Positions 1-300 of a DNA stretch of 1,427 nucleotides are shown piece after piece. Position 1 is the stretch's first letter. The number at the start of each line of letters is the position of its first letter. The stretch lies in assembly GCF_003334335.1 (NCBI RefSeq), contig NZ_QOWQ01000107.1. One strand, 5' to 3'. The notes beneath the pieces are model-generated. The model did not search any database. It was not told the origin of the DNA and worked only from the letters and a program-made list of their open reading frames with translations. The DNA comes from Escherichia coli. Lineage in GTDB: Bacteria > Pseudomonadota > Gammaproteobacteria > Enterobacterales > Enterobacteriaceae. The translations under genes were made by a program, and so were the position numbers.

Positions 1-131
1 TCTGCGCGAGTGTGCGGGGATAATCAAAAACGATACACACCGGGGTTTACCGCGTTAACGGAGCGTGGCGTTGTCCCCTCATGGTCGCTCGTCCGGTGCG
101 ATGGTGGAAGAAACTGGATTTTGTTGCAACT

Positions 132-144
132 GATAATCATTATC
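132..144. repeat. Perfect 6-bp-arm palindrome GATAAT-C-ATTATC just upstream of cosQ
   Basis: Seen in sequence: gataatcattatc reads as an inverted repeat around a central C. I recall the same motif at the equivalent place near the lambda right end. Its function is unknown to me. Confidence 0.4.
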
Positions 145-152
145 ATTTTCTC

Positions 153-159
153 GGGTCCT
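153..159 (+). other. cosQ-like element (GGGTCCT), needed in lambda to terminate packaging at the downstream cos
   Basis: Seen in sequence: GGGTCCT lies exactly 30 nt upstream of the predicted top-strand nick (182/183). Established knowledge (from memory): this is the same heptamer and spacing as lambda cosQ. Confidence 0.6.
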
Positions 160-182
160 TTCCGGCGATCCGGGCCGTTACG

Positions 183-194
183 GGGCGGCGACCT
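183..194 (+). other. cosN cohesive-end sequence GGGCGGCGACCT; predicted nicks between 182/183 (top strand) and 194/195 (bottom strand), giving 12-nt 5' overhangs
   Basis: Seen in sequence: exact 12-mer GGGCGGCGACCT, preceded by CCGTTACG and followed by CGCGG. Established knowledge: this is the lambda cohesive end, with the flanks as I recall them for the lambda right and left termini. Confidence 0.85.
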
Positions 195-231
195 CGCGGA
201 TTTTCACTATTTATGAAAATTTTCCGGGATC

Positions 232-243
232 CATGTCCGGTTT
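232..243 (-). repeat. R3-like putative small-subunit binding element (AAACCGGACATG on the minus strand)
   Basis: Seen in sequence: catgtccggttt is the exact reverse complement of the 12-mer at 319-330. It sits at offset 50-61 from the left end, close to lambda R3 as I recall it. Confidence 0.5.
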
Positions 244-288: not shown

Positions 289-300
289 GAACCGGACATG
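289..300 (+). repeat. R2-like putative small-subunit binding element (GAACCGGACATG, 11/12 match)
   Basis: Seen in sequence: the 11-mer AACCGGACATG (290-300) is identical to 320-330. Offset from the left end is 107-118. Confidence 0.5.

Follow-up and report, generated by a model that had tools for sequence, protein, structure and literature searches.

We find that the window, by which we mean the whole 1,427-nucleotide stretch of Escherichia coli DNA analyzed here (assembly GCF_003334335.1, contig NZ_QOWQ01000107.1), very probably represents the junction between the lysis and the terminase genes of a lambdoid prophage, almost certainly chromosomal in E. coli, with positions 128-337 constituting a complete and uncut cos site. 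A cos junction as such is textbook lambda biology. The evidence comprises the register of the cos subsites relative to known virion ends, the arrangement of the cosB elements and the terminase genes next to them, the genomic surroundings of near-identical sequences in other strains, and the covariation between the DNA-binding helix of the small terminase subunit and its putative target sites.

The cos junction and its register with virion ends

The 12-mer GGGCGGCGACCT is present once in the window, on the plus strand at 183-194, and matches the lambda-type cohesive end in 12 of 12 positions, as compared to 0.01 matches expected by chance (the average of dinucleotide-preserving shuffles). Immediately upstream lies CCGTTACG at 175-182 (in longer form GGGCCGTTACG, ending at 182), while CGCGG (CGCGGATTTTCACTATTTATGAAAATTTTCCGG) follows downstream. 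The CG dinucleotides at 181-182 and 195-196 flank both predicted nicks, a feature by which lambda-like cos sites have been defined (PMC4669245; PMC9026076). With cosN understood as the 12 bp plus two flanking base pairs of the CG type on each side (PMC9026076), the element occupies 181-196 of the window and is unstranded, an assignment drawing on the unique 12-of-12 match and on the starting points of virion records.

To place the junction relative to packaged genomes, the last 182 and the first 400 nucleotides of lambda (NC_001416) and of phage 21 (OL657228) were joined and aligned to the window. The right ends of both phages, terminating in GGTTACG, align with 176-182 and their left ends, GGGCGGCGACCTCGCGG, with 183-199, leaving no ambiguity across the junction. 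Virion-derived records of lambda (J02459), phi80, O276, Perceval, DN1, lambda imm21, lambda imm434 and others start at the very base that is aligned to position 183. Across 131-228, the window is identical to lambda in 87 of 98 positions and to 21 in 84 of 98, and right of 228 it diverges from both. By homology, the nicks are thus predicted at 182/183 on the top strand and 194/195 on the bottom strand, which would generate 12-nucleotide 5' overhangs.

The packaging-termination subsite cosQ, a 7-bp element that precedes the top-strand nick by some 30 bp, is found as GGGTCCT at 153-159 on the plus strand, -30 to -24 from the predicted right end. The same heptamer is annotated as cosQ in the phage 21 record OL657228, also at -30 to -24 from the right end, and the assignment is congruent with this annotation, with the register and with the conservation of the element, which is invariant in 79 close relatives. 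Most of the distant relatives also possess cosQ, likewise 23 nucleotides from their 12-mer. To the left, the flank at 128-152 (plus strand) contains an inverted repeat, AACTGATAAT and ATTATCATTT at 128-137 and 139-148, and marks the place where, coming from the left, the conserved cos block begins, at approximately 128-131; the conservation with lambda and 21 starts at about 131, and among 45 unique relatives it collapses left of approximately 125-131. Between cosQ and cosN, the spacer at 160-182 (plus strand) equates to the last 23 nucleotides of the virion right end, closing with CCGTTACG, and aligns to the right ends of lambda and 21; among the relatives 167-175 is variable and the terminal TTACG conserved. 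On the other side, the spacer separating cosN from R3 (195-231, plus strand), equivalent to the lambda I2 region, is nearly identical to those of lambda and 21. Of 79 relatives, 78 carry the 12-mer unchanged. In one metagenomic relative, IMGVR_UViG_3300008491_000088, the cohesive end reads GGGCGTCGACCT, with T in place of G at position 6, the remainder of cos being intact and R3 the same.

A preliminary description of this DNA had proposed an uncut cos junction at 153-194, with the virion ends at 182/183 and 194/195. The unique 12-mer, the cosQ in register and the base-for-base alignment to the lambda and 21 virion ends establish that the junction is real, and the starts of the virion records at the base equivalent to 183 agree with the proposed ends, which are right as far as homology can tell.

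cosB elements and terminase genes

Downstream of cosN, the element CATGTCCGGTT is present at 232-242 on the plus strand and at 290-300 and 320-330 on the minus strand, together with a copy with one mismatch at 327-337 on the plus strand. These four elements compare to an expectation of 0.41, a number as high as four being seen in none of 200 shuffles. Relative to the left cohesive end, they are situated at +50-60 (R3), +108-118 (R2) and +138-155 (R1). R3 (232-242, plus strand) occupies the position of R3 in lambda and 21 and is invariant in 45 unique relatives, and is the putative primary TerS site; in lambda, R3 occupies bp 50-65 and is contacted by TerS at 55-63 (PMC9026076). R2 (290-300, minus strand) is inverted relative to R3. 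R1 (320-337) extends over both strands as a near-palindrome, in which the perfect CATGTCCGGTT on the minus strand at 320-330 overlaps with CATGACCGGTT on the plus strand at 327-337. As the minus-strand copy is perfect and the plus-strand copy has a single mismatch, the orientation of R1 is ambiguous. In the palindrome, AAACCGGACATGACCGGTTT, the R core is present in both directions, with a CATG common to the two copies, whereas R1 of lambda and 21 is a single oriented copy; the perfect copy of the window is oriented like R2, unlike in lambda and 21.

Between R3 and R2 we place a candidate IHF site, I1, TTTCATATGGTTA at 254-266 on the minus strand, with an A/T-rich tract at 267-283. It has two mismatches to the IHF consensus WATCAANNNNTTR (a 7-of-9 match) and aligns with TAACTTAATG of lambda. 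A scan of the window with the IHF consensus returned 13 matches as compared to 14.5 expected, and the I1 match is not significant alone; what makes it a candidate is its position and orientation, which are those of I1 in phage 21 (+72 to +84, as compared to 74-86 in 21). Collectively, the region displays the tripartite R3-I1-R2-R1 layout, I1 being a candidate; R3 falls within the interval of about bp 50-65, and R2 runs opposite to R3 and, save for the ambiguous orientation, to R1. In phage 21, R3, R2 and R1 are located at 50-65, 107-122 and 150-166, nearly the coordinates of the window, and R2 is annotated (107-122) as inverted.

The terminase genes lie directly to the right of cosB, a Nu1-type terS followed by a gpA-type terL. 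TerS, a Nu1 homologue of 169 residues, is encoded at 378-887 on the plus strand from a GTG start and is annotated as terminase small subunit in RefSeq. The lambda protein has 181 residues. TerS of the window is composed of a predicted N-terminal helix-turn-helix (HTH) and a Nu1-like C-terminal part; the Pfam family Phage_Nu1 is recovered over residues 49-150 (E=1.4e-18), and the C-terminal identities amount to 46% with lambda Nu1, 40% with gp1 of 21 and 43% with gp1 of N15. The N-terminal approximately 50 residues gave no BLASTP alignment to lambda, 21 or N15, and in a multiple alignment they fall in register as an HTH. Searches of TerS against PDB sequences and NCBIfam gave no match. TerL, the gpA homologue, begins at 859 (plus strand), the same start as in RefSeq, and leaves the window at 1427, so that only the N-terminal 189 residues are covered, which share 67% identity with the corresponding part of lambda gpA. 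Just upstream of the terS GTG we also noted a direct repeat, TTGTGAGGTGAG at 347-358 and TTGCGAGGTGAG at 364-375, the second copy of which supplies a Shine-Dalgarno-like GAGG.

An AlphaFold2 model of TerS (mean pLDDT 82.5, and 81-89 for residues 1-50) places helices at residues 4-10, 15-22 and 38-54 and a loop at 23-37, with the second helix, alpha2, being DRQLRRLQ (15-22). This layout matches that described for gpNu1, with a recognition helix at 17-24 and a wing at 31-39. The top Foldseek matches of the N-terminal domain were winged HTH (wHTH) domains of the MerR type, the terminase DNA-binding domains 7lw0 and 7lwr, and 6hlk (phi80 TerS-Rpp), all of them non-significant with E>0.4.

From these features the following course of events can be envisaged, in which the nick positions, the use of IHF, the direction of packaging and the activity of this copy are taken over from lambda and 21 by homology. 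Following induction and rolling-circle replication, the terminase of the prophage itself, made up of TerS (378-887) and TerL (from 859), would come together on cosB. Winged-HTH dimers of TerS would bind R3 and R2 across an IHF bend near 254-283, with R1 as a third site, and TerS on cosB would thereby anchor TerL on cosN. TerL would then nick the top strand at 182/183 and the bottom strand at 194/195, with strand separation yielding the 12-nucleotide 5' ends GGGCGGCGACCT. Packaging would proceed rightwards, the terminase genes entering first, and end at the next cos, where cosQ would be needed for the terminal cut.

The open reading frames over this region deserve comment. The preliminary description had three of them crossing the cleavage site; this is correct for those at 10-216 and 81-290, both on the plus strand, while the third, at 207-407, is located on the minus strand wholly to the right of both nicks, overlapping cosB and not cosN. 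A further frame it had left out, 143-316 on the minus strand, does cross the cut site. RefSeq annotates no gene at 1-377, and the frames over this interval are most likely spurious. In the phage record PhiR12_1 (PV340549), a 'hypothetical protein' is annotated at 24792-24914, across R3-I1-R2-R1 and corresponding to 207-329 of the window on the minus strand. With RefSeq blank over 1-377 and a hypothetical gene placed over cosB in one phage record, the genome terminus of a very common prophage type is missing from the records. The importance of the cos junction lies chiefly in annotation, and frames spanning the site are to be ignored.

Prophage context and alternative readings

As the cos-type sequence is continuous, the window cannot be a virion end. 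That it stems from a prophage, circular or concatemeric form, as the preliminary description had it, is supported by the continuous sequence and by the cos subsites all being in register, although a wording hedged in this manner is close to a tautology, being nearly self-evident once cos has been recognized. The best reading of the sequence is an integrated E. coli prophage as the most likely form, with the integrase and the host flanks seen in relatives.

Among 5426 complete E. coli genomes, 2313 match the window in part and 1134 at a coverage of at least 80%, and 7442 of the 7462 matching places are chromosomal. Near-identical DNA is located between lysis and terminase genes in more than 1100 complete E. 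coli chromosomes. The cosB type, for its part, was recovered in 1175 of the 5426 genomes (approximately one fifth), with 1883 of 1887 places chromosomal and one to four copies per genome (median two). The 98-bp cos core as denominator retrieved only 497 genomes by megablast, fewer than the 1175 found with the cosB query, a sensitivity artefact for which reason no ratio is given. Plasmids seldom carry this DNA (12 of 72,556 records), and those that do are mostly replicons of several hundred kb. In all 79 IMG/VR relatives with upstream sequence, the DNA is continuous across cos.

The best match is to the chromosome of E. coli NCTC9112 (99.8%), with another chromosomal match at 99.5%. In NCTC9112, the window is preceded by lysis genes (holin, lysozyme, Rz-like) and followed by TerS, TerL, W, portal and onwards to J, and the genes further upstream are N, a cI-like repressor, a cro-like gene, cII, O, P and Q, equivalent to the order of the lambda prophage. 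The element is bounded by an Arm-type integrase (1283822-1285000) adjoining ypjA, and by ssrA/smpB on the other side.

The alternative that survives best, unlikely in our view and still to be reckoned with, is a defective or cryptic prophage with an intact site. Its own terminase would then never cut this site, and the most that could happen is its use in trans by a co-resident phage with matching specificity. An IS21-family element, ISEc12, splits a tail assembly gene in the closest relative (1324428-1326730 of NCTC9112), and several pseudogenes are also present in that prophage, so that the NCTC9112 copy is probably defective; given this insertion, other individual copies may be so too. The copy number of the cosB type, with a median of two and up to four per genome, points in the same direction, as defective copies commonly persist in this manner. 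Against it, the TerS frame of the window is full-length, the N-terminus of TerL intact and the cos subsites complete, and the PhiR12 phages, which are identical in cosN, cosB and the start of terS, list propagation hosts. The window is located in the middle of these five records (PhiR12_1, _2, _2_star, _4 and _5; PV340549-PV340554) with 98.7% identity overall and 100% over 183-400, and the laboratory hosts listed are MG1655 and E. coli C, which implies that this cos type supports a plaque-forming phage. The PhiR12 phages share the gene order of the window, and differ in that their records are opened away from cos and leave cos unannotated. In the searchable literature we found no paper describing the PhiR12 phages (PMC12315714 is unrelated).

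The same records bear on a less probable alternative, which we consider improbable, namely that the window derives from a virion or induced-lysate phage record deposited permuted or in prophage order, with the continuity being a convention of the deposit. In addition to the five PhiR12 records with the window mid-record, the series includes lambda itself opened at att (PV340536), its cos being found at 20,784, equal to the distance from attP to the right end. As these records are opened at att, position in a record is uninformative on the physical form, and a continuous database sequence may, taken alone, also stem from virion DNA whose assembly was deposited permuted. However, the best matches of the window are chromosomal, at 99.8% and 99.5% as compared to 98.7% for the phage records, and there are more than a hundred times as many chromosomal occurrences as phage records.

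We also searched for physical ends in sequences with this cosB type. No terminus was present at the nick in 46 metagenome contigs (those matched by a 61-mer query encompassing the left end and R3), 80 IMG/VR loci and five phage records. The closest metagenome contig ends are 6, 9 and 31 bp outside the nick, and several contigs end 6-155 bp away, probably reflecting assembly breaks at the cos core common to co-resident lambdoid prophages. The same 61-mer had no match among species-representative genomes.

A satellite (an island of the PICI kind) or a cosmid-like element borrowing a helper terminase is highly improbable. Gram-negative PICIs join lambda-type cosQ and cosN to a different cosB, but PICIs are described as being without terminase genes (PMC9026076), whereas TerS and TerL follow directly here; in all relatives examined the site is preceded by lysis genes, and the plasmid occurrences are as few as those given above. 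A chance 12-mer in ordinary intergenic DNA can be dismissed, considering the expectation of 0.01, the 98-bp block with 86-89% identity to the cos of lambda and 21, and the subsites in register. The lysis-to-terminase junction of an integrated lambdoid prophage hence remains our preferred interpretation.

Packaging specificity of the cosB-TerS pair

The documented packaging specificities of lambda-like phages are those of lambda (with 434 and phi80), 21 and N15 (probably also Monarch) (PMC4669245), and we compared the window to each of them. With lambda, it shares cosQ, the 12-nucleotide cohesive sequence, the flanking CGs and the distances from cosQ to the nick and from cosN to R3, as well as the tripartite plan R3-I1-R2-R1 and, next to it, terS followed by terL. 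The R elements, on the other hand, are CGTTTCC(G/T)TTCT in lambda as opposed to CATGTCCGGTT in the window, the helix SIRTIQNWQE of the lambda group is absent, and the sequences part right of 228; membership of the lambda, 434 and phi80 group is thereby rejected. Phage 21 agrees with the window in cosQ and cosN, and its R core CATGTCGG resembles the window core CATGTCCGG, with that of the window being one base pair longer, whereas the recognition helices, PRTIERWQS in 21 and DRQLRRLQK in the window, are unrelated. Neither the core CATGTCGG nor the 21 helix (with E20 and S24) is present in the window, which excludes it from the 21 group. As the R cores are alike apart from the one extra base pair, judged by sequence the 21 terminase may nevertheless cross-recognize the cosB of the window. 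N15 differs in R3 (GAGGTTGTTGTT, bp 48-59) and in its helix (VQAFDKWGV), both of which are missing from the window, and the N15/Monarch group was rejected as well; moreover, the N15 cohesive end deviates from that of lambda at bp 9 and 12, while that of the window is identical to lambda's. Genetic work has identified two TerS positions that tell lambda and 21 apart (PMC4669245; PMC9026076); there the window has R19 and K23, as compared to Q20 and E24 in lambda and E20 and S24 in 21.

We then asked how TerS helices and R elements are associated in other phages. A tblastn search with the N-terminal 75 residues of TerS identified, besides PhiR12, the Aeromonas phages phiARM81ld and PhAER, E. coli vB_EcoM-705R4 and the Pseudomonas phages LPPA33 and Y8, at 49-58% identity. 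The record of phiARM81ld opens with a lambda-like 12-mer, GGGCGTTAGACC, and has CATTTCCGGTTCCGGTT at +52; in two other phage relatives compared with it, TTTCCGGTTCCGGT lies just ahead of terS. From IMG/VR, a profile-guided scan yielded 80 loci with 28 distinct TerS N-termini. All 25 variants with a helix of the pattern ...HL.L[ST][DE]R[QR].R.L possess TCCGGTT within 260 bp upstream of terS, with 44 matches in 6907 bp as compared to approximately 0.8 expected. Conversely, TCCGGTT is found in none of the three variants with a lambda/21-like helix, ERTIRNW, which instead harbor a lambda-R-like element, TTTTCCGTTTCCGCTTTCT (TTTCCGTTTCC). These counts include related sequences and do not represent independent events. 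Anchored at cosQ, the loci display the order cosQ, 23 nucleotides, a 12-nucleotide cosN-like sequence, about 40 nucleotides, the R element and terS, with the R element at approximately +52-66 (about +50-60 from the predicted nick), equivalent to the R3 position. The two-way association of helix and R element, combined with the fixed register, marks the CATGTCCGGTT elements as the leading candidates for cognate sites of TerS.

The relatives differ in the architecture of cosB. Most of them have a single-site, 'simple' cosB, whereas the type of the window is the tripartite, 'complex' one. In 11 simple-cosB variants from several genera, an inverted AACCGGA is located inside terS, at +173 to +191 from the start codon and approximately 200 bp downstream of the R3-like TTCCGGTTCCGGTT. 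A simple and a complex cosB sharing one specificity have been described for N15 and Monarch (Feiss et al. 2015, PMC4669245). By analogy, the window is Monarch-like with its complex cosB, and phiARM81ld, 705R4 and the Pseudomonas types are N15-like (R3 plus rR2), with a simple cosB and the inverted copy in terS; the N15 layout with an accessory rR2 thus recurs here in an unrelated recognition type.

Two observations concern the modularity of this region. The same N-terminal DNA-binding domain of TerS is joined to two different C-terminal modules, one Nu1-like (in the window and Pseudomonas-type loci) and one of the form ...YAPIELISVAV...DFSDYDVSDIERD (in 705R4 and phiARM81ld), and the DNA-binding domain therefore seems to move independently of the part that interacts with TerL. 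Separately, the Stx1a-converting phage LC645428 (locus 1420-1800) matches 1-227 of the window at 93.8% and then continues with lambda cosB and lambda Nu1. From its sequence, the switch at 227/228 looks like a recombination breakpoint placed exactly between the cosN spacer and R3, such that the unit from R3 to the TerS DNA-binding domain behaves as an exchangeable module.

The searchable literature gave no description of this cosB type, which is not proof of its absence, and in terms of sequence the site is of a known kind with a very common, apparently uncharacterized recognition variant. We propose, with our confidence evenly divided for and against, that this cosB and TerS may constitute a fourth lambda-like specificity, with the R core (CATG)TCCGGTT and the helix DRQLRRLQK, insulated from those of lambda, 21 and N15 and belonging to a cross-genus TerS family (Escherichia, Aeromonas and Pseudomonas) that would have split independently into complex cosB and simple cosB with rR2.

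Whether a terminase can mobilize a given co-resident prophage, satellite or chromosomal segment depends on packaging specificity. As E. coli often harbors two to four copies of this type beside lambda-type and 21-type prophages, a separate class, if true, would help to predict cross-packaging and transduction in pathogenic E. coli. Moreover, the covariation of the helix and the R site over three genera represents a natural data set on how TerS reads DNA.
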